64,000 nt of DNA, taken from NCBI GenBank assembly GCA_016182015.1, contig JACOYC010000009.1, positions 6,953-70,952 of the forward strand, read 5' to 3'. This document shows positions 13,437 through 56,137 of this stretch, piece after piece (within the stretch, counting starts at the first letter, position 1; each line of letters begins with the position of its first letter). A program made the translations under genes and the position numbers. This stretch comes from Nanobdellati archaeon (GTDB lineage: Archaea > Nanobdellota > Nanobdellia > UBA10117). The notes beneath the pieces are model-generated. The model saw only the letters and a list, made by a program, of their open reading frames with translations, was not told the DNA's origin and searched no databases.

Positions 13437-14810
13437 TTATAATCTGACCTCTGCCTTTCTTCTCACTGGCGCTACGCCAGCAGCCTCTCGCACTTTTTTT
13501 AATTCTGCTCTGGCCTCAGCAACCTCGCCCCACAAGCCCACTGCTGCTTCGTACGCTGGCCTTGCCTGCTCCAATTTTTCTCTTGCTGTTTGCAGCAGTG
13601 CTGCCTGCTCTGTAATTCCGCTGTTAATGTCTGCCAAATCTGCGCCTGAAGCCGCGGCAGAACGCTCTGCAGCCTCAATTTTATCGCTTAGGGTTTGGAG
13701 TGCGGCGCTTAAACCATCAAACCTGACTTGTGCCTGTTCCTGCAATCCTTTAACAGTTTCCAGATACTCATCAACTATTACGCGATATCCATCAAACGCA
13801 CTCTTTGCCTCGCCTTCCTTGACTGTTAGATTATCATCAAATTCCTGCAGCCTGCCTAAAAGCCCCTGCACCTCTTCTGCCTTTTGGTACATCTGCTCCA
13901 GCGCTGTCTTTCGCTCAGCAAATCCGCGAAGTTCAGCTTCAAATCTATTAAATGTATCGCTGAGTTCGGCTGACTTTTCAACAAGACTTGCCTGCTGGCC
14001 ATCAGCATATGTTGTTAATTCATCAATCTTTGTAGCAAGCTGGCCTGCCGCCTCTTCCGCGTTTCCAACCTTTGTGGTAAGCCTGCCTAAGCTGGCTTCC
14101 AAATCAGCGCGCTGGCCTTTCAATGTTTTGGCACTTTCTGCGTGCTGCCCTAACTCTGCCTCTAACCCTGCCAGCTGTGTTTTCACCCGCTCGGCAGTCT
14201 GCGCAGCCACGTCTGCAACACTTGCGTAAGTAACAACCCTTTGCGATGCCTGCTGGAGTTGCTCTTGGTATTCTTCGGTCGCCGAAATAACGCGGCTCAC
14301 GCCCTCTCTGGCCTTTCTCATCTGCTCTGCAAGTTCTACGCGGCCGGCTGCTAAATCAGCAAACCCAGTTTCTGCATTCTGCAATGCCAGCATAGCGGCG
14401 GCAGTTTTTTTCTCTAAGTCTGCAGGCTCTGGTAGCGCGCGTATATCCTTAACTTTTTTCTGAACTTCGGAATAATAATTTATATCTATCCTTCTTGATT
14501 TTCGCGGTCCTGGCAACTCGTTAATTGCTTTTATTTTTGAGGCCAGCGCATCAACATCTGTGGCGTCTATTAGTCTAGCCAGCAACCCGTATTTTTCCAG
14601 CGCTCTAATCGGCGCGTAATGTGCGTCTAAATCTTCTTGGCTAACGCCTTGTGGCAATTCGACCACTAAGTCGCTGAATGCATTAATCAATCCACTTCCC
14701 AAATACTTAAAAATATCATTGCCAACTTTAACTTCCAAAAAGAAACTGCCATCGTCGCTCTTTCTTGGCGCGTATGTTGCTGTACTTCCAGCTTGCCTTT
14801 CGTCTGCCAT
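13437..14810 (-). CDS. coiled-coil protein with small N-terminal beta-rich domain
   Basis: 457 aa. After ~110 aa it consists of long heptad-like Ala/Glu/Gln/Leu helices (…LAGLEAELGQHAESAKTLKGQRADLEASLGRL…). The following gene's start codon lies 1 nt beyond this gene's stop. Confidence 0.55.
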   Translation of the reverse strand: MADERQAGSTATYAPRKSDDGSFFLEVKVGNDIFKYLGSGLINAFSDLVVELPQGVSQEDLDAHYAPIRALEKYGLLARLIDATDVDALASKIKAINELPGPRKSRRIDINYYSEVQKKVKDIRALPEPADLEKKTAAAMLALQNAETGFADLAAGRVELAEQMRKAREGVSRVISATEEYQEQLQQASQRVVTYASVADVAAQTAERVKTQLAGLEAELGQHAESAKTLKGQRADLEASLGRLTTKVGNAEEAAGQLATKIDELTTYADGQQASLVEKSAELSDTFNRFEAELRGFAERKTALEQMYQKAEEVQGLLGRLQEFDDNLTVKEGEAKSAFDGYRVIVDEYLETVKGLQEQAQVRFDGLSAALQTLSDKIEAAERSAAASGADLADINSGITEQAALLQTAREKLEQARPAYEAAVGLWGEVAEARAELKKVREAAGVAPVRRKAEVRL

Positions 14811-14924
14811 TTAATTTCACCAATTAGTGTATACTCCAACAAACGAAAGAGTTTTAAAACTTTCGGCATGCGGCGCCACAAGACAAAGCGAAAGATTTTA
14901 GTAATTATCATTGCAAATAAAACT

Positions 14925-15680
14925 ATGCCAAACATGCACGCAGACCGCGGCCAAAGCCTTGCAGGCAGGGCAATCCTCTGCGAGCGGCATGGGGATTTCC
15001 AGCTGGCCAGAACATTGTACTTGGATGCGGCCAGCGCGTACGCGCGCGCAACAAAATCCGCTGGCTCAAAGGAACTGCAAACAAGCTATCAAAGGCTGAC
15101 AGACATTTACCTTGGCAAGGCAAGACAGCTTCGCGGCAGGCAGAGCAACCAGATAACCCTGCATGACAGCGATAACTTTGGCATAATACTGAGCGAAAAA
15201 AGCTCGCCAAACCCATTCAGGCTGACGTCAGAAATGCAATCAATAGCTGACCGGTGCATCGCCGGCAAAGGCAAAACCGACCTCGAAGGCCGGGCAAATG
15301 CAATTTTTAACTGGCTAAATGATAATATCAAATACGGCGGCAAGAAGCGCGGCAGAGTAGGCTACAGACGGGCCGACGAAGTTATCAAAACCGGCGAAGG
15401 CGTGTGCGGCGAGGATGCATACCCATACATAGTCATGCTGCGCTATGCTGGCCTTGAGGCGCGTTTTATGCTTGTTTACACAGACTGTTATGGTGCGGAT
15501 GTTTTTCATGCCTGCGCGCGCGTTTTAATGCCAAGGGAATTTTCATCGGACGTTGCGTACCATATGTATGATGTTGGGGCTGCTGCCGGCAGCGACCACC
15601 AAAGAATTAAAGTTCTTCCGGACGAAGAGGTTCTTCAAAACGAAGATGCTGTAAAAGTCTTCAGAAGCTGGCGCGGCTAA
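14925..15680 (+). CDS. MIT-like domain fused to transglutaminase-like cysteine protease
   Basis: The ORF track start is 14793. I prefer the ATG at 14925 (MPNMHADRG...), outside the divergent neighbour. The N-terminus GDFQLARTLYLDAASAYARATKS...LTDIYLGKARQLRG resembles the N-domains of the two AAA ATPases. The core GEGVCGEDAYPYIVMLRYAGLEARF ... FHACARV ... YHMYDVG fits the Cys-His-Asp transglutaminase fold. Confidence 0.6.
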   Translation: MPNMHADRGQSLAGRAILCERHGDFQLARTLYLDAASAYARATKSAGSKELQTSYQRLTDIYLGKARQLRGRQSNQITLHDSDNFGIILSEKSSPNPFRLTSEMQSIADRCIAGKGKTDLEGRANAIFNWLNDNIKYGGKKRGRVGYRRADEVIKTGEGVCGEDAYPYIVMLRYAGLEARFMLVYTDCYGADVFHACARVLMPREFSSDVAYHMYDVGAAAGSDHQRIKVLPDEEVLQNEDAVKVFRSWRG

Positions 15681-22283: not shown

Positions 22284-23846
22284 TCATACACCTAATACGC
22301 ATTTTGAAGTATAACAATTTTCGACGCCAGAAGCATCTGTGCCGGAGATTTGCAGTCTCCTCCTCGCTGACAGGTTATACATCAAGTAACCGGCAGGGAG
22401 TTTTGATGGATTTGTAAACACGTGCATGGCCTCTGCTACTGCCAGCCCGCCAACTACTAAGTTTGGCATTATGACACTTGGGTCAGCAGAGTAAGCACAC
22501 CCCTCTCTAGCTGCACGATTCGTTTTGCGGCGCTCTTCTGCCGCCTTTCTCTCGTCACTAATCATTTCTTTTAAATCAGTCCACGGACCCCATCGCTGAT
22601 AACGAATGCACTTTGTCCTGCCGGGATACGCAAAATATATTTCTCCCCCCCTAACGCCGGCAGATGCATCTATTATTGGCACATTCAATCCCGACATTAA
22701 AACTAAATTATTAATGTGAATCCTTGCTTCTACGCTGTCCACGCCAGATATTATTAAATCGGGCGAAATTTCTTTCAGCCATTTAGTAAAATTTTCGTCG
22801 ATGTAACCTATAACAAAACCAACATCGCGTCCAGTTATCTGACTTAATCTATTTGAAAGTGCTGACGCTTTCTTCTTGCCAATTGCGCCGTATGCCAATA
22901 TTTGTCTGTTTAAATTTGTGGGTTCAAAATTATCGCCGTCCGCTATTATAACTCTTGCACCGGTTAAACAAGACCACAATGATGTGTAATTGCCAATTGC
23001 GCCGCCGCCAATTATTAAAATGGTTTTGTTATAAAACAGACTATTTGCAGATTGCTTTGGCCCATCTAAACTAACACGTTTGCTGGATAGAGAATCATAA
23101 TCGATTGCTAACACCGGCCGTCCATCTGTTTCCATTGGCATAATTATGCTGCGCAATTCGCCGATGGCTATGCCTGCCGCTATGCCGCTGGTGGCATTGC
23201 CCTGCGGCAAATCTTCATAAATGCCTGGCATTATATCTGCTTCGTTTACATGTACCCATGCACTGTTAATAAGAGCTCTAATACGCTCTTCTAAAATCAT
23301 GGCTGGCCCGCTTTTCGCCTGCCGCCCGAATATTCTTACCGAACATTTAGTGGCGCTTGACATTGTGCTTATAAACGGAACATTTTGTTTTCTGCACCAT
23401 TCATAAGAATAAAATTTAGAAGTATAATTGTTTGTTGCATCTATAACTGTTGTTGGCATTCCAAAATTACTTGCAGCGTCTCTTCCAAGCGGCGCATCAA
23501 TGCCGCTAACCTGTATGTTCGGGTTAATCTGACGTAGCGATGCAGTCAACGCTTTAATTTTACTCTCGCCCTTGCGGGCTTCAAAAAGCAAAAATCCTTC
23601 GGATGCACTATCCAGATTGCGGCCGCCGTTCACATTTCCAGAACCAATTATCCTTACATGACCTACGCCGAGTGCCGCGCAGCCTGCCGAAACGCAGTTC
23701 GAAAGCTGGCCAGAACCCACCACAACAACTTTCGCGCTGTCAATCTTTCCTTGCATCCAGCCCTCAATCCGCCTCTGTCTGTCGTATACATCTGCTACTT
23801 CGTGCTCATCTTGTTCCTCTTGTCTTATTGGTATAACGCCCATCAT
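22284..23846 (-). CDS. E1-like (ThiF/MoeB family) enzyme with two tandem Rossmann-type domains
   Basis: 520 aa. The N-terminal domain is degenerate (VVVVGSGQLSNCVSAGCAALGVGHVRIIG). The second domain is canonical (ILIIGGGAIGNYTS...VIIADGDNFEPTNLNRQIL...ISGVDSVEARIHINN...). Confidence 0.7.
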   Translation of the reverse strand: MMGVIPIRQEEQDEHEVADVYDRQRRIEGWMQGKIDSAKVVVVGSGQLSNCVSAGCAALGVGHVRIIGSGNVNGGRNLDSASEGFLLFEARKGESKIKALTASLRQINPNIQVSGIDAPLGRDAASNFGMPTTVIDATNNYTSKFYSYEWCRKQNVPFISTMSSATKCSVRIFGRQAKSGPAMILEERIRALINSAWVHVNEADIMPGIYEDLPQGNATSGIAAGIAIGELRSIIMPMETDGRPVLAIDYDSLSSKRVSLDGPKQSANSLFYNKTILIIGGGAIGNYTSLWSCLTGARVIIADGDNFEPTNLNRQILAYGAIGKKKASALSNRLSQITGRDVGFVIGYIDENFTKWLKEISPDLIISGVDSVEARIHINNLVLMSGLNVPIIDASAGVRGGEIYFAYPGRTKCIRYQRWGPWTDLKEMISDERKAAEERRKTNRAAREGCAYSADPSVIMPNLVVGGLAVAEAMHVFTNPSKLPAGYLMYNLSARRRLQISGTDASGVENCYTSKCVLGV

Positions 23847-23861
23847 TTATGCACCACTATA

Positions 23862-24854
23862 TCATATATCTTTAATATCTAAATGATAACGCCCATCATC
23901 ACCCATTTTACCTGATTTGGGCGTTCCATCGTACGCGACTATAGCTTTAGCTTTGGCATCCCGTACTGCCTTAATCTCGGTCTGCGCAGCTCGTTGTAAG
24001 CCACTAACATTTTCACGTATTATTCTAATTAAATCATCCTCGGTAAAGGAAATGTCATTTTTTACGTGTGCTTGCTCAAATTGTATAATGTTATTTTCCA
24101 CCGCGCTTGTATCAATTTCAAATGTCGGCTTGCGCGGCGCGTAAACTATTTTTGCATGATAGTTACCCTTAAGATCAAGAACCAAACTCAAAGCAAACCC
24201 AAACTCCCTTAGCCTATCATATAAAAGATCAAATTCTGGCAATCTGTCTTCCAGGCCAGCTGCATCAAGTCTACAGCCGGGCAACCATATTTTAATTTCA
24301 CGCTTGCCGGGCGTTTCAGATATATTTAGAAGAACACCTTGCTCTGAATTTTCAGCTTGTATTTTAACCGGCAAGCTAAGCAAACGAATATCATCATGCG
24401 CATACAAAAAATTATGCGCAGCAATTTGCGGAAAAACTATTAAATTAAGATTAGTATCATCAGTATCTGAATGCTCGCAGCTAAAGTATGGATGGGTATG
24501 CCATGCACCCATTATTCTGTATGATTCTTTATGCACTTTAACGCCAGCTGCAAAATCATCGGCAGAACGTATGAAATTTTTTCCAGCTACCTGCCTCGTC
24601 AAACAAACATCGTGTATTGTAAAATCATCAACATCTTTTGAACCTAATAAAAGCCCGCCAACTTCTGATCCTTCGCCCAACTCCTCTTTTGTTATTTTAT
24701 GCGCAAGCTCGCCCAGCCGGTGCGCCTTTTCCCATGCTTTCTGCGTCATGACAAAGGTCTGCGGAATGCAAATCGGGTCCTGACGCTCGGTGCCGCGAAA
24801 CTTGCGATTAAGTTGCGCTTCAAAAGCCCTCTGCGACTTATTTTTTTCTGCCAT
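23862..24854 (-). CDS. JAB/MPN+ (JAMM) metallopeptidase with unassigned C-terminal domain
   Basis: 330 aa. The conserved Glu lies in SEVGGLLLGS, and the full JAMM motif is GAWHTHPYFSCEHSDTDD (HxH-x7-S-xx-D). Confidence 0.75.
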   Translation of the reverse strand: MAEKNKSQRAFEAQLNRKFRGTERQDPICIPQTFVMTQKAWEKAHRLGELAHKITKEELGEGSEVGGLLLGSKDVDDFTIHDVCLTRQVAGKNFIRSADDFAAGVKVHKESYRIMGAWHTHPYFSCEHSDTDDTNLNLIVFPQIAAHNFLYAHDDIRLLSLPVKIQAENSEQGVLLNISETPGKREIKIWLPGCRLDAAGLEDRLPEFDLLYDRLREFGFALSLVLDLKGNYHAKIVYAPRKPTFEIDTSAVENNIIQFEQAHVKNDISFTEDDLIRIIRENVSGLQRAAQTEIKAVRDAKAKAIVAYDGTPKSGKMGDDGRYHLDIKDI

Positions 24855-26322: not shown

Positions 26323-26790
26323 TTATACGCGATATGCTCCCTGAATAGTGCCTTCCACAATTTGCAGGTCATACACGATAACTTTTTTCTCTGGATCTTC
26401 TTTTACCCTGCCCAACTTACCTATCTGCTGGACATCTATTTTTTTTGTTGGCATTGGCCTGCCTGTTGCCCGATCTATTTGGCAGGGCGCCTTATTATTA
26501 TTAATATCCATGTGTATTCCCTTTGGCTTCTGCGCCAGCAGGCCTATGTCGCTCAAAACTTTTGCTTCCTCTGGAGACTGACCCGCACCAGTATACAGGA
26601 GCGTAGAGAGAGAATCCAAAGTCAAACCATGCCGCATTTCTATTGGGATTTCGCGAACTATAACATCTCCGCCTAATGCCGTGCTTAGGCTGCCGATCCA
26701 CGGCAACTGGTATACTTCTTCTTCAGACATTTTCCTTTTTTCTTCGCTCTGCGAGAAATCAAATAACGCTTCTATGCTATCCACACCCAT
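26323..26790 (-). CDS. hypothetical 155-aa protein (positional candidate for the modifier of the E1/JAB module)
   Basis: ORF 35 nt upstream of the 477-aa gene. It ends ...VIVYDLQIVEGTIQGAYRV with no GG terminus and no recognisable ubiquitin motif. Confidence 0.4.
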   Translation of the reverse strand: MGVDSIEALFDFSQSEEKRKMSEEEVYQLPWIGSLSTALGGDVIVREIPIEMRHGLTLDSLSTLLYTGAGQSPEEAKVLSDIGLLAQKPKGIHMDINNNKAPCQIDRATGRPMPTKKIDVQQIGKLGRVKEDPEKKVIVYDLQIVEGTIQGAYRV

Positions 26791-26836: not shown

Positions 26837-28606
26837 TTACTGGGTGCGCCCGTAAACAATCTCTGCAACCCTTGCGCACGATTGGCTGGTTAAAACTGCC
26901 GTACAGAATCTGGCTTCTTTAAGCATCCCTGCCCGCAAGAACGCATTCAGCTTGTTAAGCCAAATTATTTTGTTTTTTGGTTCAATCTCCAAAGCTTTTG
27001 AGTAAAAATTTTGCGCTTCACTAAATTTTTTCTGTGCTACACAAACATCTCCAAGGGCAACATACGTATTTAAATCTACCTTACCAGAAAATAAAATAGA
27101 TTCTAGATGCTGTCTTGCACCATCAAGCTCGCCAACCATAATCTCGGCCATGGCAGTATTATATGCAACTAAATCATTATGCGGTTTTATTCCGCGCAGC
27201 AAGTCAAGCGCTTTGCTGTGCTGTCCAAAACTATAAAGTAAAACTGCTTTATTATTAGCTGCCTCTGTAAAACTTGGTTCTTTTACTATGGCTTTATCAT
27301 AACACATTAATGCATCATCCTTAGCGCCAATAGCATCAAATGTAGCACCAAGGTTGTTCCAGCCGACGGCGCTATTTTCATCAAGGCGTAAAAGCTTTTT
27401 GTACCAGCCTACAGCTTGTTGAAAGTTGCCTTTTCGGTATGCTACATTCCCAAGCTTCAGATACAGCTCCGGTAAAAGCTGGCCTGCCCGGCTTTCATAC
27501 TGTACAACTTTTTTCTCTATTTCTGGAAGCTCTGGCGATGCTATTCTCTTCAGCCCTTGCTCGGCGAGCAGCCTATTTAAAACAGAAACTAAATCATGTA
27601 TTGACTGATTTAGGTCCTGGCCTGCCTGAGGCACCACTATAGACTGTGGCCCCGGCTGCTTGGCCAGCAACAGCTCCCTATCTTTAAGCTCTATCTCTTT
27701 TTCGAGCACAGCAATTTTTTCTTTGTATTCTTGTACCATTACAGCAGCTTCGCGTTCAGTCCTTTCTAAGGCCAGCAACTGATCCTCGCGCCTTTCGCGC
27801 AGGTGTATTTCGCTCCGCTCTTTTTCTTCCTCTAATTCTAGATGCTGTTCTGCTCTTCTTTGTTCAAGCCACGTTTCAACTCTGGCGCGTTCTGCAGTTA
27901 GAAGTGCTTCCTGCATGCCTGCGCGCATTTCCAAAACTTTCTTTTTTTGCTCTAGTAAAATGAACTGCGCAGTTAGGTCCTTATGTGCAGCATCAAATTC
28001 CTGATCCCGCGCTTTTTGATGCAACTCGCTCAAAGCCATTTCTAATTTTTTATCAAGATAATTACCGCTCCAATCACACACAATATCACTTGCCTCAAGA
28101 CCGTATTCAGCCAGCTTCAAGTCTCTTTTAACGCACGCGTAAAAATCCCCGCGCCGGTTTAAACAAACATCATCAGCAGTAAACTCACTGGCGACGCTCA
28201 CAGCAGCTTCAGAAAGTCTGGGTGATAAAATTTCCTCCAGATCACTTTTCATAACTCCTGATTTGCCTTCAGTTGCAAACAAATTAACAAGCGCATGCGC
28301 AAGCTTGCCTGCGGCCAATTCATTTCTAATGATATATTTGAGTGTCAGGTCGCCTTCGAGTTTGTGGCCATCCTTTGTTGTCACGCCTAATTTAAAATGC
28401 AATAAGACTGGCCCATTATCCACAACAATATAATCCTGGTCGCCGAACCAGCGCCGTTTCCCGGGCTGTTCGCCTTTAAATAAATCTGCCAGATTTTCCG
28501 CTGGCATGCAGTAATCTTCTCCCGGCGCGTTGTCTCTGTGAAATATTCCGCGCTGTTGCGTCACCTTTCTTGCAACCTCATCCTCACTTTTTTTCCAGGG
28601 TTTCAT
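26837..28606 (-). CDS. SPFH/band-7-like N-domain, charged coiled coil, C-terminal TPR repeats
   Basis: 589 aa. The N-terminus DYIVVDNGPVLLHFKLGVTTKDGHKLEGDLTLKYIIRN looks SPFH-like by eye. The central region is an EQRRAEQHLELEEEKERSEIHLRERRED coil. The C-terminus has TPR units (GNFQQAVGWYKKLLRLDENSAVGWNNLG...). Confidence 0.45.
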   Translation of the reverse strand: MKPWKKSEDEVARKVTQQRGIFHRDNAPGEDYCMPAENLADLFKGEQPGKRRWFGDQDYIVVDNGPVLLHFKLGVTTKDGHKLEGDLTLKYIIRNELAAGKLAHALVNLFATEGKSGVMKSDLEEILSPRLSEAAVSVASEFTADDVCLNRRGDFYACVKRDLKLAEYGLEASDIVCDWSGNYLDKKLEMALSELHQKARDQEFDAAHKDLTAQFILLEQKKKVLEMRAGMQEALLTAERARVETWLEQRRAEQHLELEEEKERSEIHLRERREDQLLALERTEREAAVMVQEYKEKIAVLEKEIELKDRELLLAKQPGPQSIVVPQAGQDLNQSIHDLVSVLNRLLAEQGLKRIASPELPEIEKKVVQYESRAGQLLPELYLKLGNVAYRKGNFQQAVGWYKKLLRLDENSAVGWNNLGATFDAIGAKDDALMCYDKAIVKEPSFTEAANNKAVLLYSFGQHSKALDLLRGIKPHNDLVAYNTAMAEIMVGELDGARQHLESILFSGKVDLNTYVALGDVCVAQKKFSEAQNFYSKALEIEPKNKIIWLNKLNAFLRAGMLKEARFCTAVLTSQSCARVAEIVYGRTQ

Positions 28607-30055: not shown

Positions 30056-31345
30056 TTATTCGCTCGGCAATTCCCCGCCCGAGGACTTGCCTTCTATTTT
30101 AACCGGCGGCCTGGCCATGTCGCTTTTGTATCTTTCAATCATGTCAAGCAAATCCTTAAATTCATCTCTTTCGCCGCTTCTTTCTATCTGCTGTTCCGCG
30201 AGCGTGAACCACGGGCCAAGCGTTGATGGCTTTTGCGAAATTGCCTGCTGGAAATCCGCGAGCGTTACCTGCCTTGCCTGCCCGCCCGAGCTCAGCGCCT
30301 CTCTGAATGGAATATCTGCAGCTAATTTCACAACTTCAGCAATATCTGCCGCAGAATACCACTCTGTCATGCCTGCAAGCGCAATATAATTTACTGAAGT
30401 TTCAACTGGCCGCGAGCTGCACTCTTTCTCAAAAATTGCTGTGCGCATTTCCAGGTCTGGCGGCGAAACCAAAACGTGCTTGCTAAACCTTCCGCTTCTT
30501 CTTAGCGCAGGGGCGATCTCCCATGGCTTGTTTGTAGAAGCTAAAATCAGGGATTTTTCCGGCCGTTCCTGCAGGCCATCCATCTGGGCAAGCAGTGTGT
30601 TGACTGCCTTGACTCTTTTTTTGTTGGCCAGCGAGTCAAACTCATCAAAATACATAATCGACGGTGAATTTTCCCTCGCAAATTCAAATGCTGTCACTAT
30701 GTTGCGCTCTGTCTCGCCCTCGCCGCTTTTCAATAAATTGTACGGCATGACAAACAGAAATGTTGCATTGCCCTCGCCTGCTGCTGCCTTTGCAACAAAA
30801 GTCTTTCCGCAGCCTGGCGGGCCGTAGAGCAGGACGGCTTCTGAAGTCTGCTTTCCGTAAGCCTGATAAAGTTCCGGGCGCGTGAATGGATAAACCAAAA
30901 CCTCATTTATGATTTGCTTAACTACTGGCATGCCAACAACATCATCAAGCTTGACATTTGGCCTTTCAATTAAAAGGAAATCTGGAACATCTTCTTTCTT
31001 TTCATCTATTGTTGGTTTTTCCGGCGCGATTTTCTTTGGGTCCGGCGGCGGAACTGGCTTTGAAGGCGCAACCGGAATTGCTGGCACTGGCTGGGGCGGC
31101 GGTGGAATTACACTTTTTCCAACACCGGGCGCATACCTTTTTGCTATTTCGAGGCATTGCTGGCCTCGCTTGAGATGATCCCTGCTCTCACGATTCTGCT
31201 GAATCCTTGATGCCTGAACATAAAGGTCTGCAGCTTCCAGGTAGCATCTGCGGGCTTCAGAAAAATCCCGCGAACGTTCGTGCTTCATGGCCGATGTATA
31301 CAAACCGTCCGCCCTTCCTACTAGTTCTTCAAGTTTCTGTGACAT
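30056..31345 (-). CDS. MIT-AAA+ ATPase, Vps4/CdvC-like, paralog with degenerate pore loop
   Basis: 429 aa. The N-terminal three-helix segment is FSEARRCYLEAADLYVQASRI...CLEIAKRY, followed by a Pro-rich linker. Walker A is LLYGPPGCGKT and Walker B is IMYFDEFDSL. The SRH is TNKPWEIAPALRRSGRFSK. The pore-loop position reads LLKSGEGETE and lacks an aromatic residue. Confidence 0.75.
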   Translation of the reverse strand: MSQKLEELVGRADGLYTSAMKHERSRDFSEARRCYLEAADLYVQASRIQQNRESRDHLKRGQQCLEIAKRYAPGVGKSVIPPPPQPVPAIPVAPSKPVPPPDPKKIAPEKPTIDEKKEDVPDFLLIERPNVKLDDVVGMPVVKQIINEVLVYPFTRPELYQAYGKQTSEAVLLYGPPGCGKTFVAKAAAGEGNATFLFVMPYNLLKSGEGETERNIVTAFEFARENSPSIMYFDEFDSLANKKRVKAVNTLLAQMDGLQERPEKSLILASTNKPWEIAPALRRSGRFSKHVLVSPPDLEMRTAIFEKECSSRPVETSVNYIALAGMTEWYSAADIAEVVKLAADIPFREALSSGGQARQVTLADFQQAISQKPSTLGPWFTLAEQQIERSGERDEFKDLLDMIERYKSDMARPPVKIEGKSSGGELPSE

Positions 31346-31346
31346 T

Positions 31347-32579
31347 TTAGTTTTTTGGCAAATATCTTCTTATTAGATTTACTAAATCCGGATACTCTGA
31401 TGCTTCGCCGCTCCTTTCAATTTCGTTTTTTGCCTTAACAAGCCAAGGCACTAATGATTTTTTTGTCTGCGAAAGAGCTGTTTGAAAATCTCTAATAACT
31501 ACCGGCCTTTCTGACTTGCCTTCCAAAGACACTTCTTTTGCGATAATTTGCTTTGCACTTTTAGCGATATCAACGATATCCGCACTGGTGTAGCCTTCGG
31601 TATTCTGCGCCAGCCAGTCGTAATCTGCAGGATGAAGACTTACAAGTTCTGCCGTTGTATTTAACTGAAAAATTTTCTTTCTGGCGGGAGCATCTGGCAA
31701 GGGAACAAACACAGTTCTGTCAAGCCTGCCAGGCCTTCGGACTGCGGGATCAACTGCCCATGGCCTGTTTGTAGTTGCCATCCAAAATACCGGCTTCGCT
31801 GCATCTTTGCTTGAAAAGCCATCCATGCTGGACAGTATTTGATTCACGAGCCTTGCTGTATGTGATGCGTCTGCTGAGTCTCTGGAAACACCAAGCGCGT
31901 CAATCTCATCTAAGAATATTATGCTCGGCGCGTTTTTTATTGCGTCTTCAGTCATTCTTGAAAAATGCTGCTCCGACTCACCGACATATTTACTCAAAAT
32001 ATCGCTTATCTTTACGTTATAAAAATTTGCCTTGCACTGGCCTGCTGCTGCCCTGCCGATAAATGTTTTTCCGCAGCCTGGCGGGCCGTAAAGCAAAATG
32101 CCGCCGCCGGGTTTCAAGCCCAGCCGTTGGTAAAGCTGCGGCGACATCATCGGCTGTATTATACTAAGGCGTATCTCTTCTTTGACATCATCAAGGCCAG
32201 CCACCTGTTCAAAAGTCATGTCTGACTTCTCGGGCTTGATTTCAAATGTTTCTTCCAGAGAACTAGAATCGCCTCCACCACCCTGTCTGACTTGAATGCG
32301 CGGTGGTGGCTGCGGGGCGAGGGCTCTGCCTTTTTCCACGTACAACCTTGCTAAATTTTCCCAGCTTTTTCTGTCGGCTTCTGAGCTGGTTAGCCTTGCA
32401 GCATTAGCATACTCTTCTGCAGCTCTTAGATAAAGTTGCCGCGAACGTTCAAAGCCATATTGTGCGCGGCTAGTGTCAGCTGGCAAGAGAGACTTAGCCT
32501 CCTCCTCGAGTCTGCGTGCTTCATTAGAGTAGCCAAGCCCTCTGGCTGCTGTAACCCTGGGTTCATTGCCAGCTGACAT
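31347..32579 (-). CDS. MIT-AAA+ ATPase, Vps4/CdvC-like, paralog with canonical pore loop
   Basis: 410 aa. The N-terminus is FERSRQLYLRAAEEYANAARL...LARLYVEKGRAL. Walker A is LLYGPPGCGKT and Walker B is IIFLDEIDAL. The pore loop is SKYVGESE. The SRH is TNRPWAVDPAVRRPGRLDR. There is a 1-nt gap to the paralog downstream. Confidence 0.75.
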   Translation of the reverse strand: MSAGNEPRVTAARGLGYSNEARRLEEEAKSLLPADTSRAQYGFERSRQLYLRAAEEYANAARLTSSEADRKSWENLARLYVEKGRALAPQPPPRIQVRQGGGGDSSSLEETFEIKPEKSDMTFEQVAGLDDVKEEIRLSIIQPMMSPQLYQRLGLKPGGGILLYGPPGCGKTFIGRAAAGQCKANFYNVKISDILSKYVGESEQHFSRMTEDAIKNAPSIIFLDEIDALGVSRDSADASHTARLVNQILSSMDGFSSKDAAKPVFWMATTNRPWAVDPAVRRPGRLDRTVFVPLPDAPARKKIFQLNTTAELVSLHPADYDWLAQNTEGYTSADIVDIAKSAKQIIAKEVSLEGKSERPVVIRDFQTALSQTKKSLVPWLVKAKNEIERSGEASEYPDLVNLIRRYLPKN

Positions 32580-32588
32580 AGTTTGTAT

Positions 32589-33197
32589 TTACCTAGCACC
32601 TTGATTGCCTTCGTCCCTTTGCCTCTCTTTCGCAATCTCCTGTTCCACAGAAGTTACGCCCACAGTTTCCTGTGCGATTTCTGCTGAGGCCTGTGCCTTT
32701 AATCTTGCAACAAGGTCTTCTGTTGGCTCAGACTGGCCAATGTTTGAGAGGCCTTCAAGTGCAACCTCTACCTGCTGGCCACTGGTCTCTAAATCTCTCA
32801 GTGCTTGCTCTGCATCACCAAGCAGCGCATCTATGTTTCCTGTTTTGGCTTTTAGTTTTCCTGATACTTTTACTACACCTTTCATCGTGCCGAGCAAACC
32901 AACATATTGTTCGGCAAGGTCTACTAAACCAACAACATTTTGAGAATATTGTCTTATGTTGCCAGCTGCAAGTTCCATTCTGCCTGCACGGTCATACATA
33001 TTGGCGTGCATTGCTTCGGCCTTTTCACCAGCATTTGTTCTAACTGCTTCCTTAAATGCCTCATACGCTTTTTGTTTACTTCGCTTTGCTCCCAAAGCTG
33101 ACTTGTCGGCCTCTCGCTGCGCCCTGACCAGAGTTTGCTTCAACTGGTATGGCGTCTCGCTTCTAAATAAACCCTTTAACGTTTCTCCTAATGTCAT
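32589..33197 (-). CDS. ESCRT-III (Snf7/CHMP/CdvB)-like protein
   Basis: 202 aa and all-helical. The N-terminus ETLKGLFRSETPYQLKQTLVRAQREADKSALGAKRSKQKAYEAFKEAVRTNAGEKAEAM follows the CHMP pattern. The first half is basic and the C-terminus is acidic, with a TEDLVARLKAQ helix. It lies 9 nt upstream of the AAA gene. Confidence 0.6.
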   Translation of the reverse strand: MTLGETLKGLFRSETPYQLKQTLVRAQREADKSALGAKRSKQKAYEAFKEAVRTNAGEKAEAMHANMYDRAGRMELAAGNIRQYSQNVVGLVDLAEQYVGLLGTMKGVVKVSGKLKAKTGNIDALLGDAEQALRDLETSGQQVEVALEGLSNIGQSEPTEDLVARLKAQASAEIAQETVGVTSVEQEIAKERQRDEGNQGAR

Positions 33198-33207
33198 TTT
33201 TTCACCC

Positions 33208-33942
33208 CTAAATTTTTTCTACCTCTCTTTTCCCTTTTTGGGATTGAGCATCAACGTCCGGTGTGCTTGCCCTAGCAACTACCAGAAGTTCAGGCTGCCT
33301 GGCCGGTTGTGCTGGCTGCCTTTGCGGCTGGCCTGACAGCTCTCTTTTCAGCTGAGCATACAGCGCTGCATCCTCCGGCGTTGTTTCCAGTTGTGCGCCT
33401 AGCGCAGACTCGCTTGATTCGGCTATTCTCTCCAAGTCACTATTCACACGATCACTCTCTTCACCAAGCCGCTGTGCTGTTGCAGCGATTGCTTCAGACT
33501 GATAGCCTAGCTTTTCGCCCATTACTGTAAAAAGTTCTGAAACTTCTGCAACGTCCTGCAACCACGTTCCGTTCTTAACTGCAGTTATTGCATCTATTAC
33601 CTTTGAAGCGAGCAATGAAGCATTATCCGCGCGCTGGCGCGCATATCTGTGTGCCTTGACAAAAGACTGCGCTTGTATTTTATCACCCTTGCCTTCCCAC
33701 ACCGCAGCGCGTTGCCAAGCAGCCTCAGCTTCTGTAACACTTTTTTCTCTCAAGTTAAGCTGGTGCTGGTACTGCATATTAAGCCTCGTAACTAATTCCT
33801 GATCCGACATCCTCTGATACTCTGCAATCCTTTGCTGTGAGCCCGGCCGAAACTGTCCCGTATTGGGATTAATACCAATATGATCGCGGTTATTTCTGTA
33901 CCACCAATCTGCCAGCCTGTCAAGCATTCCTCTTTGTCCCAT
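33208..33942 (-). CDS. divergent ESCRT-III/PspA-superfamily-like helical protein
   Basis: 244 aa and predominantly helical, with the same basic-then-acidic polarity. The C-terminal helix is PEDAALYAQLKRELSG. It is adjacent to the 202-aa ESCRT-III-like gene (10-nt gap). Confidence 0.4.
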   Translation of the reverse strand: MGQRGMLDRLADWWYRNNRDHIGINPNTGQFRPGSQQRIAEYQRMSDQELVTRLNMQYQHQLNLREKSVTEAEAAWQRAAVWEGKGDKIQAQSFVKAHRYARQRADNASLLASKVIDAITAVKNGTWLQDVAEVSELFTVMGEKLGYQSEAIAATAQRLGEESDRVNSDLERIAESSESALGAQLETTPEDAALYAQLKRELSGQPQRQPAQPARQPELLVVARASTPDVDAQSQKGKREVEKI

Positions 33943-33946
33943 TTTA

Positions 33947-35092
33947 TCACCCGATTAGCGAGAGCGTATCGCCCTGCTTATCAACTTCCCTTCCATAAAC
34001 TTTCTTAAACAGTTTTACAACATCATCATTATTTAATCTGAGCGCAGTGCGCAGCCTTGGCAGGCCAAACATTTCACCGCCAGAGCCTAAAGACAAAAGC
34101 GAATCCGTCTGCGTCTCTCTAAATTCATCTAGGTAAGCCCGCAGTCCATCAGTCTCTGCAGTCGGGTCGAAATAATGCTTGAACAGCCTTGCCCGCGCAT
34201 CGCCCTGATTGTAGATTAATTCTTCATCCCTGAAATTCCAGCAGAAAGGCAGGTAATTTGGGTGCTCGAACTGCCTGAACAGAGTGCTTATTCCTGCGCG
34301 GGACATATTATCAACAACAAAACATTCAACTACAAACTGCTTGCGCCTGTGCGCCTCTTCCGCCCGGCTAATCAAGCTGTCCTTCCGCGCAGTTGGCGAA
34401 AGCGAAAGCTCAATTGAAAATAAAGAATATTCGCAGCGCACCGCGAGCGGCCTTGCAAGCAGGCCCGTCTTTACCTCGCCGGCAACAGCGATTCCGTCCT
34501 CGCGCAACAATTTAGGATCCCAACTGCCATCGCCCAAAAACGCGCCCGGCGCATAAAGCGGCATCTGGGCAGCCATCTTAGTTCTAACTGCTAAAACATA
34601 CATTGCACCGGGTATGCGCGTCGTTCCACTGCCAATTGCAGAAACATGCCCATGGAGCTGCTTAATCTGCTCAATATTTTCTTCATATGCCTGCATTCTT
34701 GCCGGCAGCTCTGCCTGTGCCCTGCCAACTAATGTATTCTTATCGAATTTAATATCTTGTAATTTCACGCCGCGCGCAGCTGCCTGCAAATATGTTTGGC
34801 TGTGCACGACATATCTGTTCAGCTCTCTGGCCTCAGTTTCAAAATCCAGCTCTTTGCCAGAAATCGCTGCAGCATATATAGAATCTAATGCTGACAAGAT
34901 TATCTCGCAATTATTTCTTTCAACTAAGTCATGCACGCTTTTTTCCAGCCCGTTACATACCAGAGAAAAATTTTGGAGTAGTTCCTGCGTCCTGGCAATT
35001 TGTTTCCACCAGTCCTGCCTGTTTTGCTTGGCGTGCTGCTGCAATATCTGCCGCAGATTTTCTGCTACCTGTAGCTTGCTTTCCAGTGTCAT
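33947..35092 (-). CDS. hypothetical protein, first gene of the minus-strand array
   Basis: 381 aa, 4 nt upstream of the 244-aa gene. It ends ...VDKQGDTLSLIG. No family recognised. Confidence 0.45.
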   Translation of the reverse strand: MTLESKLQVAENLRQILQQHAKQNRQDWWKQIARTQELLQNFSLVCNGLEKSVHDLVERNNCEIILSALDSIYAAAISGKELDFETEARELNRYVVHSQTYLQAAARGVKLQDIKFDKNTLVGRAQAELPARMQAYEENIEQIKQLHGHVSAIGSGTTRIPGAMYVLAVRTKMAAQMPLYAPGAFLGDGSWDPKLLREDGIAVAGEVKTGLLARPLAVRCEYSLFSIELSLSPTARKDSLISRAEEAHRRKQFVVECFVVDNMSRAGISTLFRQFEHPNYLPFCWNFRDEELIYNQGDARARLFKHYFDPTAETDGLRAYLDEFRETQTDSLLSLGSGGEMFGLPRLRTALRLNNDDVVKLFKKVYGREVDKQGDTLSLIG

Positions 35093-35114
35093 ACTACTAA
35101 ATGTCAGTTAAAAA

Positions 35115-35170
35115 AGCTTAAATAGCTTTCGCTTCGGCTGCTTTTAAGCCTTCCGAAAGCTTATTAAATT
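35115..35170. promoter_or_regulatory. compact divergent promoter region with two TATA-like boxes
   Basis: cttaaata at 35117-35124 (tatttaag on the minus strand) lies ~28 nt from the minus ATG at 35092. ttattaaa at 35161-35168 lies ~27 nt from the plus ATG at 35192. This spacing suggests leaderless or short-leader transcripts. An 8-bp inverted repeat agctttcg/cgaaagct lies between the boxes. Confidence 0.35.
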
Positions 35171-35191
35171 TTACGCATTAAGCGGCGGCAT

Positions 35192-36079
35192 ATGGCACTC
35201 AGCCAATGGAGAACTTCTGAACAGGTAATCGCAAGATATGCAAAACCGGGATTTCTGGAAGGCTTCGCGGTTGACTCCAGCGAATATGCAATTATTTTGA
35301 AAGGCGGCGCGCTGACAGGCTATGTAATCTCTGGCGGAATAGTCAAAAGAAGTTTTTGGGATATTTTTGGAAAAACAAGTTTCATTTTCGCGGATGGCCG
35401 GCCACGGCAAATCTACGCAGCAATTAGCGCAGTATCCGCGGATTCGCTTGAAATCGTTGCCGATATCGCACTGAACTATAAAATAGAACCTAACTTAATG
35501 CAAAATCTTGCCGGCATGATAAACAGCACAAAAACTATTCTGCTCGGCAGCGATTTAGAGAGTGTGCTGAGAAGCGAAGGCATTGAACAGAAAATTAAGG
35601 AAATCGCAGGCCAGCATAAGGGTTACGAACTGCAGACAAAAATTAAGGCGCTTGACGGCTTGCGGCAGCAATATATAAGATACGGAATCACAGTACAAAG
35701 CTGTACGATAAACTGGCGATACACGCAGGATGTTTTGACACAGATAGAAATTAAACGGCAGGATTTGCAAAGGCAACGCGACACGGCTACTACATTGACA
35801 GATATAAATCGCATCAGACAGCAAATGCAAATTTTAGACGAACAATTAAAATTTTATGACTTACAAATTCATGCGGCAAAAAAAGAAGCAGAGCTTGCAA
35901 GGGTGAAGGCAGCAGCAAGCCCTGAGCTTGCCCGCAGGGATGCAGAGCACGCCGCGCAAATTGAGCAGGAAAAAAGAGAGCTGGACATGTTAGTGGAACT
36001 GCAAAAGAAGCGCGGCGCAGGGGCAGGCCCGATGATTATCGGCGGGACGATTAATATTGGTGGGGAGAAAAAGCAGTAA
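35192..36079 (+). CDS. SPFH/band-7-like protein with C-terminal coiled coil
   Basis: 295 aa. ...SADSLEIVADIALNYKIEPNLMQNL... resembles the SPFH core by eye. The C-terminal region is a charged coil (QRQRDTATTLTDINRIRQQMQILDEQLKFYDLQIHAAKKEAELARVKAAA). Confidence 0.45.
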   Translation: MALSQWRTSEQVIARYAKPGFLEGFAVDSSEYAIILKGGALTGYVISGGIVKRSFWDIFGKTSFIFADGRPRQIYAAISAVSADSLEIVADIALNYKIEPNLMQNLAGMINSTKTILLGSDLESVLRSEGIEQKIKEIAGQHKGYELQTKIKALDGLRQQYIRYGITVQSCTINWRYTQDVLTQIEIKRQDLQRQRDTATTLTDINRIRQQMQILDEQLKFYDLQIHAAKKEAELARVKAAASPELARRDAEHAAQIEQEKRELDMLVELQKKRGAGAGPMIIGGTINIGGEKKQ

Positions 36080-54850: not shown

Positions 54851-56137
54851 ATGCGCCTCTCGGAAATTATAGGATATTATAAGAAAGTTGCGCCAGAAAT
54901 AGCGCGCATCTCAGCGGGCAGAGAAATTGCTGTCAAATTCGGGGCGGAAGCTGGGTATGGAAAACGGCCAGACATAGCGCAGTTTCCATCGGATATTTTG
55001 AACCACGTGAGGCGTGGCGCAACCTCTTTTCATATTTCAGAAGAAAGATGGAAAGACCCGCTCCAGCTTTCAACAGAATCAACAAAAACAGAATTAGACA
55101 ACCTGCGGAACGGCTGGGACTTGGTGTTCGATATTGACTGCCCGTGGGGATTTGAAATAGCTAAGTCAACTGCAAAACTAGTCGTGCAGGCATTACGCTG
55201 GCACGATATAAAAAATATCTTCGTAAAATTTTCCGGCTCAAAGGGTTTTCACATACTAGTACCTTACGAAGCGTTTCCAAAAGAGTTACATAAAGATGAA
55301 ATATCAAAATATTACCCCGAGATTCCACAGCTTTGCGCGCAGTATATTCTAGAATTCATCAAACCAAACCTGGAAAAGCAAATACTTGAATTGGCAAGCT
55401 ACGACATAAAAAAACTTATTGAAATTTTTGGTACAACAAAAGAAAAAATTTTCGATGAAAAAACGCAATCATTCCACACAAACATATTTGCGCAAATAGA
55501 TATTGGATTGATGTCATCGCGGCATTTGTTCCGCGCACCATACTCCCTAAACGAAAAGAGCTGGCTGGCCGCAGTACCAGTGCAGCCTGACAAAATAAAG
55601 GACTTTGAAAAAGATTTCGCTAAGCCGGAGAGCATAAATTTGGAGGAAGGCTTTATGAATTTCGAAGGCGTGCGGACTGGTGAAGCGTCCCAGCTTCTTA
55701 TGCAGACCCTCGACTGGCAGAAGCGGATGGAGGAAAAAGATGAAAAGAAATATTCTGGCAGGAAATTTGAATTTTCTGACAAAGTTCCCGAAGAAGCATT
55801 CCCGCCCTGCATGAAAATAATACTGAGCGGCCTGCAAGACGGCAGAAAACGCTCTCTTTTCGCACTACTAAATTTCATGAAATCAGCAAAATGGCCATGG
55901 AACGAGATAGAAGAACGAGTTTGGGAGTGGAATAAAAAAAATTCGCCCCCTTTGAAGACCGGTTATGTGAAGGCACAACTAGCATGGCATGCCCGCCAGT
56001 CTTTGAAAGTTCCGCCGCCCAACTGCAGACAATATTTCATAGAGCTCGGCGTATGCAAACCAGATGCAATCTGCGATAAAATTAAAAATCCCATAAGTTA
56101 TCCTAAATTCAAAATTGGCGGGATGACTAGCAAATAA
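54851..56137 (+). CDS. archaeo-eukaryotic DNA primase, PriS catalytic domain fused to a PriL-CTD-like Fe-S module
   Basis: 428 aa. The AEP motifs are WDLVFDIDCP (DxD) and FSGSKGFHILVPY. The C-terminal ~110 aa read EEAFPPCMKIILSGLQDGRKRSLFALLNFMK...PPPNCRQYFIELGVCKPDAICDK, with four Cys and a PriL FPPCM signature. Confidence 0.75.
   Translation: MRLSEIIGYYKKVAPEIARISAGREIAVKFGAEAGYGKRPDIAQFPSDILNHVRRGATSFHISEERWKDPLQLSTESTKTELDNLRNGWDLVFDIDCPWGFEIAKSTAKLVVQALRWHDIKNIFVKFSGSKGFHILVPYEAFPKELHKDEISKYYPEIPQLCAQYILEFIKPNLEKQILELASYDIKKLIEIFGTTKEKIFDEKTQSFHTNIFAQIDIGLMSSRHLFRAPYSLNEKSWLAAVPVQPDKIKDFEKDFAKPESINLEEGFMNFEGVRTGEASQLLMQTLDWQKRMEEKDEKKYSGRKFEFSDKVPEEAFPPCMKIILSGLQDGRKRSLFALLNFMKSAKWPWNEIEERVWEWNKKNSPPLKTGYVKAQLAWHARQSLKVPPPNCRQYFIELGVCKPDAICDKIKNPISYPKFKIGGMTSK

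Follow-up and report, generated by a model that had tools for sequence, protein, structure and literature searches.

A conserved operon of two probable ESCRT-III-like proteins and two AAA proteins with MIT-like N-domains in a DPANN archaeon

Eukaryotes and some archaea cut membranes with a machine whose core consists of ESCRT-III proteins and an AAA ATPase that carries an MIT domain. Among archaea, homologues of ESCRT-III are reported from all major lineages except DPANN (PMC7619361) and Cdv proteins from three of the four superphyla (PMC8970359), DPANN division has been attributed to FtsZ (PMC7617429), and DPANN go unmentioned in the survey of ESCRT systems in archaea by Makarova et al. (2024, PMC10936438). 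Here we describe five closely packed genes at positions 30056-35092 of a 64,000-nucleotide stretch of contig JACOYC010000009.1 (the whole of which is called the window below), whose source is labelled "DPANN group archaeon" at NCBI. We consider it likely that these genes encode a deeply divergent membrane-remodelling machine of the ESCRT-III/Vps4 type, and the module is unreported in the literature that we searched.

The five open reading frames (ORFs) are all on the minus strand and encode, in transcription order, proteins of 381, 244, 202, 410 and 429 amino acids (aa); each lies exactly where a preliminary description of this DNA had placed it. The core genes and their immediate upstream surroundings are as follows:

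33947-35092, minus strand: 381-aa protein, first gene of the operon, family unknown, the module's most conserved component
33208-33942, minus strand: 244-aa ESCRT-III-like protein, tentatively closest to the B type (Vps20/32/60, CHMP4-7)
32589-33197, minus strand: 202-aa ESCRT-III-like protein, tentatively closest to the A type (CHMP2A)
31347-32579, minus strand: AAA-410, with a MIT-like N-domain, a short linker, a classical AAA cassette and an intact pore loop 1
30056-31345, minus strand: AAA-429, a paralogous MIT-like AAA protein with a degenerate pore loop 1
35192-36079, plus strand: 295-aa protein, divergently transcribed and conserved beside the operon
35093-35191, no strand: divergent intergenic region of 99 nt in which a short inverted repeat and a pair of AT-rich TATA-like boxes can be read from the sequence

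The gaps between the five core genes are 4, 10, 9 and 1 nt. A GGTG Shine-Dalgarno-like motif lies 5' of four of the five, with none at AAA-429, which starts 1 nt after AAA-410; the 381-aa gene has a TATA-like box (TATTTAAG) about 24 nt 5' of its ATG and is without a Shine-Dalgarno motif, which is what a leaderless archaeal first gene predicts. AAA-429 is followed by a 67-nt gap with T-runs and another TATA-like element. From this pattern of motifs and gaps the five core genes are probably a single transcription unit. In the divergent intergenic region the inverted repeat (GCTTTCGG...CCGAAGC) is flanked by both AT-rich TATA-like boxes, and it may be a shared regulatory site.

Orthologues with 28-84% identity keep the same gene order in three related loci, L001 (GCA_053535855.1), L003 and L004 (a Candidatus Woesearchaeota metagenome-assembled genome, MAG), and this shared order together with the Shine-Dalgarno-like and TATA-like signals indicates that the ORFs are real genes. 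In L003 and L004 the order is 385, 239, 199 and 406 aa followed by the start of a second AAA gene, and three short contigs of a third, more distant lineage (L005-L007) carry fragments of the module; the order of the five genes recurs in at least two other DPANN lineages, and with the divergent 295-aa gene added it is kept in three or more lineages. Between the window and L003, identity is 70% for the 381-aa protein and 30-35% for the ESCRT-III-like proteins, and the AAA-410 orthologues in L001 and L003 show 68% identity. Members of the family are extremely scarce: three relatives of the 202-aa family turned up when 1.84 billion representatives were searched exhaustively with HMMER, word-indexed homologue searches gave one relative each for the 202-aa and 244-aa proteins, and the sole addition from one genome scan was a Woesearchaeota MAG. 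Two metagenome scans and three viral scans for relatives of the module found nothing, so that a viral or mobile origin is unsupported and the alignments could not be deepened. The DPANN-like host that had been proposed from the sequence agrees with the NCBI label and with the related locus from the Candidatus Woesearchaeota MAG.

Both helical proteins are predicted to be all-helical, as previously stated, and the basic N-terminal half and acidic C-terminal half that had been ascribed to the two of them are clear in the 202-aa protein and weaker in the 244-aa protein. They were compared by hhalign with a reference alignment of seven ESCRT-III sequences, six of them each validated against Pfam Snf7 (60-198 bits) and the seventh the Loki fragment 9fn1; on this scale eukaryotic A-type and B-type references match one another at 94.7%. 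For the 202-aa family the probability of a match to the references is 84.8% (E=6.5e-6), and the alignment spans 139 colinear columns in which its residues 8-147 face Snf7 3-151; for the 244-aa family the probability is 35.5% (E=3.9e-4) and the alignment spans 113 colinear columns, where EGKGDKIQAQ lies opposite TKGNKVMAKN of Snf7 at what we take to be the hairpin tip. The corresponding scores are 43.5 and 33.0, compared with 16.4 ± 3.2 (maximum 26.8) and 14.0 ± 2.5 (maximum 27.0), respectively, for block-shuffled sequences, and in neither case did any of 150 shuffles reach the real score; reversed ESCRT-III references gave at most 0.6% (0.6% for the 202-aa family). The best single reference was CHMP2A for the 202-aa family and Loki CHMP4-7 for the 244-aa family. 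When the 244-aa protein was searched against all PDB sequences with phmmer, the single match was 9fn1_U, the Lokiarchaeal "Vps20/32/60-like ESCRT-III" (Loki CHMP4-7), with E=1.3e-5 over residues 49-198 against 18-167, and 9fn1 remains the only or top PDB match for 244-aa profiles of two and three sequences; a PDB profile search with the 202-aa family returned noise only. Among the 202 long frames of the window, the one that scored best with a hidden Markov model (HMM) made from the ESCRT-III references alone was the 244-aa ORF (E=0.002), and the 202-aa ORF came third.

In low-confidence AlphaFold models of the two proteins, a short helix at the N-terminus precedes a long hairpin, after which come two or three shorter helices (3-13, 16-53, 57-111, 122-153 and 160-201 in the 202-aa model), an arrangement that fits ESCRT-III alpha0-alpha5. 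The top seven fold matches of the 244-aa model are all ESCRT-III proteins (CHMP1B, Loki CHMP4-7 and Asgard ESCRT-IIIB; E=6e-3 to 3e-2), and the top match of the 202-aa model is CHMP1B (E=0.016), amid BAR domains. The 202-aa protein begins with LF(K/R)xx(T/S)P, as do CHMP2/3/6, and carries EDLVARLKAQA, which resembles the core of MIT-interacting motif 1 (MIM1); the N-terminal helix of the 244-aa protein is rich in Trp and its linker in Pro/Gln, and its C-terminal peptide, TPDV[DN]AQSQKG[KR]REVEKI, is conserved in four lineages. We place both proteins, with moderately high confidence, in the archaeal/eukaryotic type of the ESCRT-III superfamily, and tentatively assign the 202-aa protein to the A type and the 244-aa protein to the B type. 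The two families have no significant mutual similarity by BLASTP and reach only 10% with hhalign, and the idea that they are recent paralogues was dropped; they look like two distinct ESCRT-III-like subtypes that are too distant to be called duplicates. The earlier statement that both components of the module are duplicated thus holds for the AAA pair (below) and not for the ESCRT-III-like pair, whose members are too far apart.

ESCRT-III and PspA share a superfamily and PspA loci often hold Band-7/SPFH partners (PMC7619361), and the locus might instead be a PspA/Vipp1-style maintenance system, in which the helical proteins, with SPFH/flotillin-like proteins, make protective coats on membrane under stress, the AAA pair only regulates their assembly, and there is no scission. 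The reported use of FtsZ for DPANN division would suit such a role, and there are weak SPFH-like signals in two neighbours. The N-terminus of the 589-aa protein (26837-28606, minus strand) is weakly SPFH/Band_7-like (E=0.028); the protein also has a long coiled coil, and TPR repeats at the C-terminus. The 295-aa protein is weakly similar to that N-terminus (E=9e-4) and may consist of an SPFH-like domain followed by a coiled coil; it also matches phrog_200 (E=1.5e-6), which is only a "lipoprotein" family in PHROGs, and it is conserved in the same divergent arrangement in L003 and L008 (53-57% identity) and, as identical copies, on contigs (L009) from the organism of the window itself. These SPFH signals are weak, however, and both helical families reach only 0.3% in hhalign with validated PspA/Vipp1 references, compared with 35-85% with eukaryote/Asgard ESCRT-III; Pfam PspA_IM30 (PF04012) does not match either helical protein, and a MIT-like AAA partner is a hallmark of the archaeal/eukaryotic branch that is said to be missing from bacterial PspA systems (PMC7619361). 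We regard a maintenance system of this kind as unlikely. The ESCRT-III likeness that had been proposed for both helical proteins is supported, with hhalign, phmmer, fold search and HMM ranking favoring the eukaryote/Asgard type over PspA. The 381-aa protein at the head of the operon has no match in Pfam, NCBIfam, PADLOC or PHROGs, in keeping with the earlier remark that it is of no known family.

The N-domains of the AAA proteins were aligned as a profile of seven sequences with MIT references (Vps4, VPS4A, VPS4B and CdvC, each validated). The match is 58.2% by hhalign (E=9.8e-5) over 62 columns that include all three helices, with a score of 27.0 against a null of 11.8 ± 2.3 that none of 150 shuffles brought up to the real value, and 1.0% for the reversed control. 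Pfam MIT matches two of the six AAA N-domain copies below threshold (the best is AAA-429 with E=6.5e-5 and 23.4 bits, where the cut-off is 30), and three of seven once the protease copy described next is counted. TPR_2 matches three of the six AAA N-domain copies, and a PDB profile search with the N-domain returned designed TPR proteins, with calpain-7 appearing only at E=2.2. A bona fide CdvC MIT domain also draws weak TPR matches, so these are no argument against MIT. The evidence favors the view that the AAA N-domains are MIT-like, and on this point the hhalign and sub-threshold Pfam results agree with the preliminary description.

When the frames of the window were scanned with an HMM of the AAA N-domain, a third copy was found (E=4.6e-11):

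14793-15680, plus strand: MIT-like domain, third copy, fused to a transglutaminase-like cysteine-protease core

This protein matches Transglut_core with E=1.3e-13, and Pfam MIT weakly, covering model positions 2-65 of 66, with E=0.06 when the whole protein is scored and E=0.0036 when only the domain is; its likely start Met is at 14868 or 14925. It is a lone plus-strand gene among minus-strand genes. The MIT-like domain is thus portable within the window, occurring on two AAA proteins and one protease. In eukaryotes a MIT-like domain on different enzymes brings Vps4, AMSH, USP8 and calpain-7 to ESCRT-III, and the MIT-like/transglutaminase fusion recalls the eukaryotic MIT-domain proteases and deubiquitinases that bind ESCRT-III.

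Both AAA proteins are single-cassette classical AAA proteins (Pfam AAA, E=2.2e-39 for AAA-410 and E=1e-30 for AAA-429), and the motifs quoted earlier do occur: both have GPPGCGKT as Walker A, Walker B reads IIFLDEIDAL or IMYFDEFDSL, and there are paired arginines, RRPGR or RRSGR, in the second region of homology (SRH). The Pro-rich linker noted for both is long in AAA-429, whereas AAA-410 has a short PQPPP and then a Gly/Ser linker. They are 34% identical over their full length, N-domain and C-terminal helix included, and in a neighbor-joining tree (200 bootstraps, 262 columns, validated references plus archaeal Cdc48; a rough tree with sparse sampling that has no euryarchaeal or Asgard Vps4) the paralogues AAA-410 and AAA-429 form a clade with 93% bootstrap support, so their duplication is lineage-specific. 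AAA-410 and its orthologues have an intact aromatic pore loop 1 (SKYVGES). In AAA-429 and its orthologue this loop is not aromatic (LKSGEGET), and seven residues are deleted where pore loop 2 is placed; AAA-429 keeps Walker A, Walker B and the arginines, and has an extra C-terminal tail, ...GKSSGGELPSE, that is also found in L001.

In NCBIfam, AAA-410 scores 208, 202 and 194 bits with CDC48, PAN and CdvC, respectively, and AAA-429 scores 166, 155 and 164; against the cut-off of 650 bits for the CdvC equivalog the two values are 193.5 and 164.4, and a true CdvC reaches 698.9. A whole-protein homologue search with AAA-410 was dominated by two-domain Cdc48 proteins, whose summed scores mask single-domain relatives, so AAA-410 cannot be placed by that search. 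With clade HMMs, the meiotic and Cdc48-D2 models give 222 and 227 bits for AAA-410, 192 and 171 for AAA-429, and 249 and 336 for PAN; judged by these models, the module AAA proteins are intermediate, shifted toward the Vps4 group relative to PAN or Cdc48-D1.

Best whole-protein matches to Cdc48 and PAN, a classical RRPGR SRH, N-domains that also match TPR_2 and designed TPR proteins, and the lack of any curated ESCRT model over threshold are what one would see if the two AAA proteins were a generic Cdc48/PAN-like unfoldase pair with TPR-like N-domains, next to unrelated coiled-coil proteins whose ESCRT-III likeness reflects helical composition. Such composition is countered by the in-register colinear ESCRT-III alignments, which lie far beyond the reversed and shuffled nulls and are specific relative to PspA, and by the ranks of the helical ORFs among the window's frames. 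The weak TPR matches of CdvC MIT and the score of Loki ESCRT-III under the Snf7 cut-off (below) answer the domain-level points, and the compact conserved operon ties the components together. We judge the unfoldase pair to be quite improbable.

Several results count against an ESCRT-III/Vps4-type assignment of the module. The hhalign query profiles of the module families are thin (only 3-7 sequences), and the reference sequences were entered by hand, though each was checked against Pfam or NCBIfam. Pfam Snf7 (PF03357) has no match at E<=1 among window proteins or their orthologues, and no curated model (Pfam Snf7, PspA_IM30 and Vps4_C; NCBIfam CdvB and CdvC) reaches its threshold; even the Loki CHMP4-7 fragment of solved structure falls short of the Snf7 cut-off (26.0 against 27.3 bits), so sub-threshold scores are expected for divergent members. 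The match of the 244-aa family to 9fn1 fades from 1.3e-5 to 3.4e-3 and then 0.039 as the profile is enlarged. The AlphaFold models were made from two-sequence alignments and have low confidence (predicted local distance difference test values of 56 and 46), the low value of the 244-aa model being due to its having been built from only two aligned sequences; none of the fold matches of either model attains E<=0.001, and BAR domains are among those of the 202-aa model. The conserved tails of both helical proteins fit neither the MIM1 nor the MIM2 consensus cleanly. Finally, in the tree the Vps4/CdvC/katanin/spastin clade has 100% support and the module AAA proteins are outside it, adjoining it with a mere 25% support. 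This position is explained by the alignment: the module proteins have RRPGRLDR or RRSGRFSK in the SRH segment, from which two residues are deleted in the Vps4 clade (RR--RF(E/Q)KR), and they keep a full-length LGLKPGGG segment before Walker A where the Vps4 clade has a short deletion.

The module AAA proteins have a TN[RK]PW motif in common with Vps4, CdvC and katanin. Vps4_C (PF09336) has no match in them at E<=1, whereas the Vps4, katanin and spastin references do match it. The claim that the AAA cores belong to the Vps4/CdvC/meiotic clade is therefore not upheld, since they lie outside the fully supported clade, lack its signature deletion and Vps4_C, and score low with CdvC. The preliminary description had named AAA cores outside that clade together with N-domains unlike MIT as evidence that would speak against it; the first is what we find and the second is not. 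By the tests run, in which Vps4 of Euryarchaeota and Asgard archaea was not sampled, the module AAA proteins are not Vps4/CdvC orthologues, and we predict that they probably work like Vps4.

The homology-level assignments, gene order, conservation across lineages and states of the motifs we regard as established, and from here on we infer how a machine of the ESCRT-III/Vps4 type might work with these parts. The 244-aa (B-like) and 202-aa (A-like) subunits would co-polymerize on the cytoplasmic face of the membrane, with the N-terminal amphipathic motifs LDRLADWWYR and LKGLFR supplying membrane contact. The MIT-like N-domains of the AAA proteins would then dock on exposed C-terminal tails of the polymers, for which TPDVDAQSQKGKREVEKI and PTEDLVARLKAQASAE are candidate peptides, and ATP-driven extraction of subunits would cause filament turnover and, through it, membrane constriction or scission. 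The presence of paired AAA proteins, one of which has a dead pore loop, suggests a hetero-oligomeric disassembly motor; since AAA-429 has lost the pore-loop residues and yet keeps its ATPase motifs, AAA-410 and AAA-429 could form a mixed ring in which the substrate is gripped by AAA-410 alone. We know of no description of such a motor for Vps4. The 381-aa protein and the 295-aa (possibly SPFH-like) protein would probably be membrane-targeting or nucleating partners that stand in place of CdvA or ESCRT-II. Because DPANN archaea are reported to divide with FtsZ, scission of vesicles or buds, or membrane repair, would be a likelier job for the machine than primary cytokinesis.

DPANN archaea are tiny episymbionts that trade material with their hosts, and a scission or repair machine bears on their budding, division and cell-cell bridges. 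A conserved operon of ESCRT-III-like and MIT-AAA genes in Woesearchaeota-like genomes would fill the DPANN gap in the known distribution of these systems, and would supply an outgroup-like AAA lineage for rooting the evolution of Vps4, with the 381-aa and 295-aa proteins as candidate membrane-targeting factors. So rare a family also exposes what annotation by curated HMMs overlooks.

The core genes are part of a region of nearly 39 kb (3160-41917) of almost unbroken minus-strand genes, most of them without a family assignment; many encode either TPR proteins of large size (1495, 589 and 569 aa) or Ig-like/NPCBM-associated surface-type proteins (763, 394 and 693 aa). Five to six genes downstream of the core, on the same strand, are an E1-like gene and a JAB gene. 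The first (22284-23846, minus strand) encodes a 520-aa "ThiF" protein that is a tandem ThiF: residues 23-174 are a second ThiF domain (E=1.3e-17), whose nucleotide loop is degenerate (VVVGSGQLS), and residues 273-491 carry GGGAIG. It resembles the inactive plus active adenylation pair of eukaryotic E1, here in one chain. The second (23862-24854, minus strand) encodes a JAB/MPN protein of 330 aa, in which the JAMM motif is intact (HTHPYFSCEHSDTD at residue 119) and about 190 residues at the C-terminus are unassigned; 15 nt separate this gene from the tandem ThiF gene downstream of it, and it shares 1 nt with the 477-aa gene that precedes it. No E2 or ubiquitin-like (Ubl) gene was recognized near these two genes, and a small Gly-Gly-ended Ubl ORF was looked for there and not found.

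This neighborhood raises the possibility that the module belongs to a ubiquitin-like conjugation or defense island, serving the tandem-ThiF E1-like and JAB proteins as a Cdc48-like segregase or in immunity like that of Bil or of the cyclic-oligonucleotide-based anti-phage signaling system (CBASS). In PADLOC the tandem ThiF protein matches only the E1 part of CBASS Cap2, the JAB protein matches the Cap3 JAB, and the IetA and TRIP13 models pick up the AAA proteins, as they would any other; these matches are to generic AAA, E1 and JAB domains only, at 30-100 bits. AAA-429 also ends in a GG-x5 tail. Two such Gly-Gly tails occur near C-termini, ...GKSSGG-ELPSE of AAA-429 (30056-30120, minus strand) and ...INIGG-EKKQ of the 295-aa protein (36035-36079, plus strand), and they recall substrates of JAB and E1 proteins such as the CD-NTase C-terminus in type II CBASS. 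A GG near the C-terminus is expected by chance in about 3% of proteins, L008 does not keep the second Gly of the 295-aa tail, and both tails are within chance expectation. We consider an island of this kind highly improbable: no CD-NTase, E2 or Ubl was found, scans gave no viral or mobile-element signal, and the 67-nt gap with its own TATA-like box parts the core from the downstream genes. Elsewhere the conserved unit is the five genes plus the 295-aa gene, the related contigs ending before the E1/JAB position.

Also downstream, a 155-aa ORF (26323-26790, minus strand) has a relative in L001 (3909-4085), with 42% identity over 60 aa, that likewise lies downstream of the AAA pair; L001 is without the 452- and 589-aa genes and has instead a 185-aa gene with a weak DUF7876 match. 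On the other side of the module, the plus-strand gene at 54851-56137 encodes a 428-aa PriS-PriL fusion with primase small- and large-subunit domains in one protein. Such fusions are known from Nanoarchaeota/DPANN, and this one is consistent with the taxonomic label. The window also holds leucyl- and histidyl-tRNA synthetases and PolX, and tRNA and Rfam scans of its whole length gave no features.

The module could also be an anciently diverged ESCRT native to DPANN, with A-like and B-like subunits and a "pre-Vps4" MIT-AAA protein that branched off before the signature deletions of Vps4, katanin and spastin arose; we hold this to be unlikely. If it were true, the ESCRT-III and MIT-AAA partnership, and perhaps the A/B split, would be older than the Asgard/TACK radiation, and the presence of a MIT-domain protease, a eukaryote-like tandem E1 and a JAB protein in the same array would hint at a ubiquitin-like link outside Asgard archaea.

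How, then, does a divergent ESCRT-III/Vps4-type module compare with the systems already described? Cdc48/VAT and PAN have similar or slightly higher profile scores with the module AAA proteins, and they have in common with them the RRPGR segment and LG(I/L)xP(P/G)xG before Walker A. They differ in that the module proteins have a single cassette, a MIT-like N-domain where Cdc48/VAT and PAN have a double-psi barrel or a coiled coil/OB, TN[RK]PW in place of TNRPD/E, and an operon with ESCRT-III-like genes.

The Cdv system of Thermoproteota (CdvA, CdvB and CdvC) is likewise an archaeal operon of one or more ESCRT-III homologues and a MIT-AAA ATPase, and CdvC has Walker A GPPGCGKT and TNKPW in common with the module AAA proteins. 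As had been noted by eye, no CdvA, ESCRT-I or ESCRT-II was detected among the module proteins and neighbors scanned with Pfam and NCBIfam, where a very divergent CdvA analogue is possible. The module differs from Cdv in this respect, in having no winged-helix extension by Pfam, and in belonging to a superphylum for which FtsZ is reported.

Asgard and eukaryotic ESCRT-III with Vps4 resemble the module in having two distinct ESCRT-III-like subunits, of which one is nearest the A type (Vps2/24/46, CHMP2A) and one nearest the B type, in the predicted alpha0-alpha5 order, in a disordered linker followed by a conserved C-terminal peptide, and in an adjacent AAA gene with a MIT-like N-domain. The differences are that the similarity of the module proteins is seen only profile-to-profile, that the AAA proteins are outside the Vps4 clade and without the RR--RF deletion, a Vps4_C match or the beta-domain, that the AAA protein is duplicated with degenerate pore loops in one copy, and that the 381-aa and 295-aa partners are new.

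The euryarchaeal "Main", Thermoplasmata and Halo/Meth ESCRT systems (PMC10936438), whose Vps4 sequences were compared by description only, differ from the module in their arCOG09748, arCOG08177, FHA and adaptin-like accessories, which were not detected here. They resemble it in being minimal loci of Vps4 and ESCRT-III genes with lineage-specific accessories and SPFH proteins nearby. In the window the AAA pair lies directly downstream of the ESCRT-III-like genes with gaps of 9 and 1 nt, an arrangement kept in L001 and L003, and under the operational criteria of that survey (a MIT domain, or ESCRT genes nearby) the module AAA proteins would count as Vps4.

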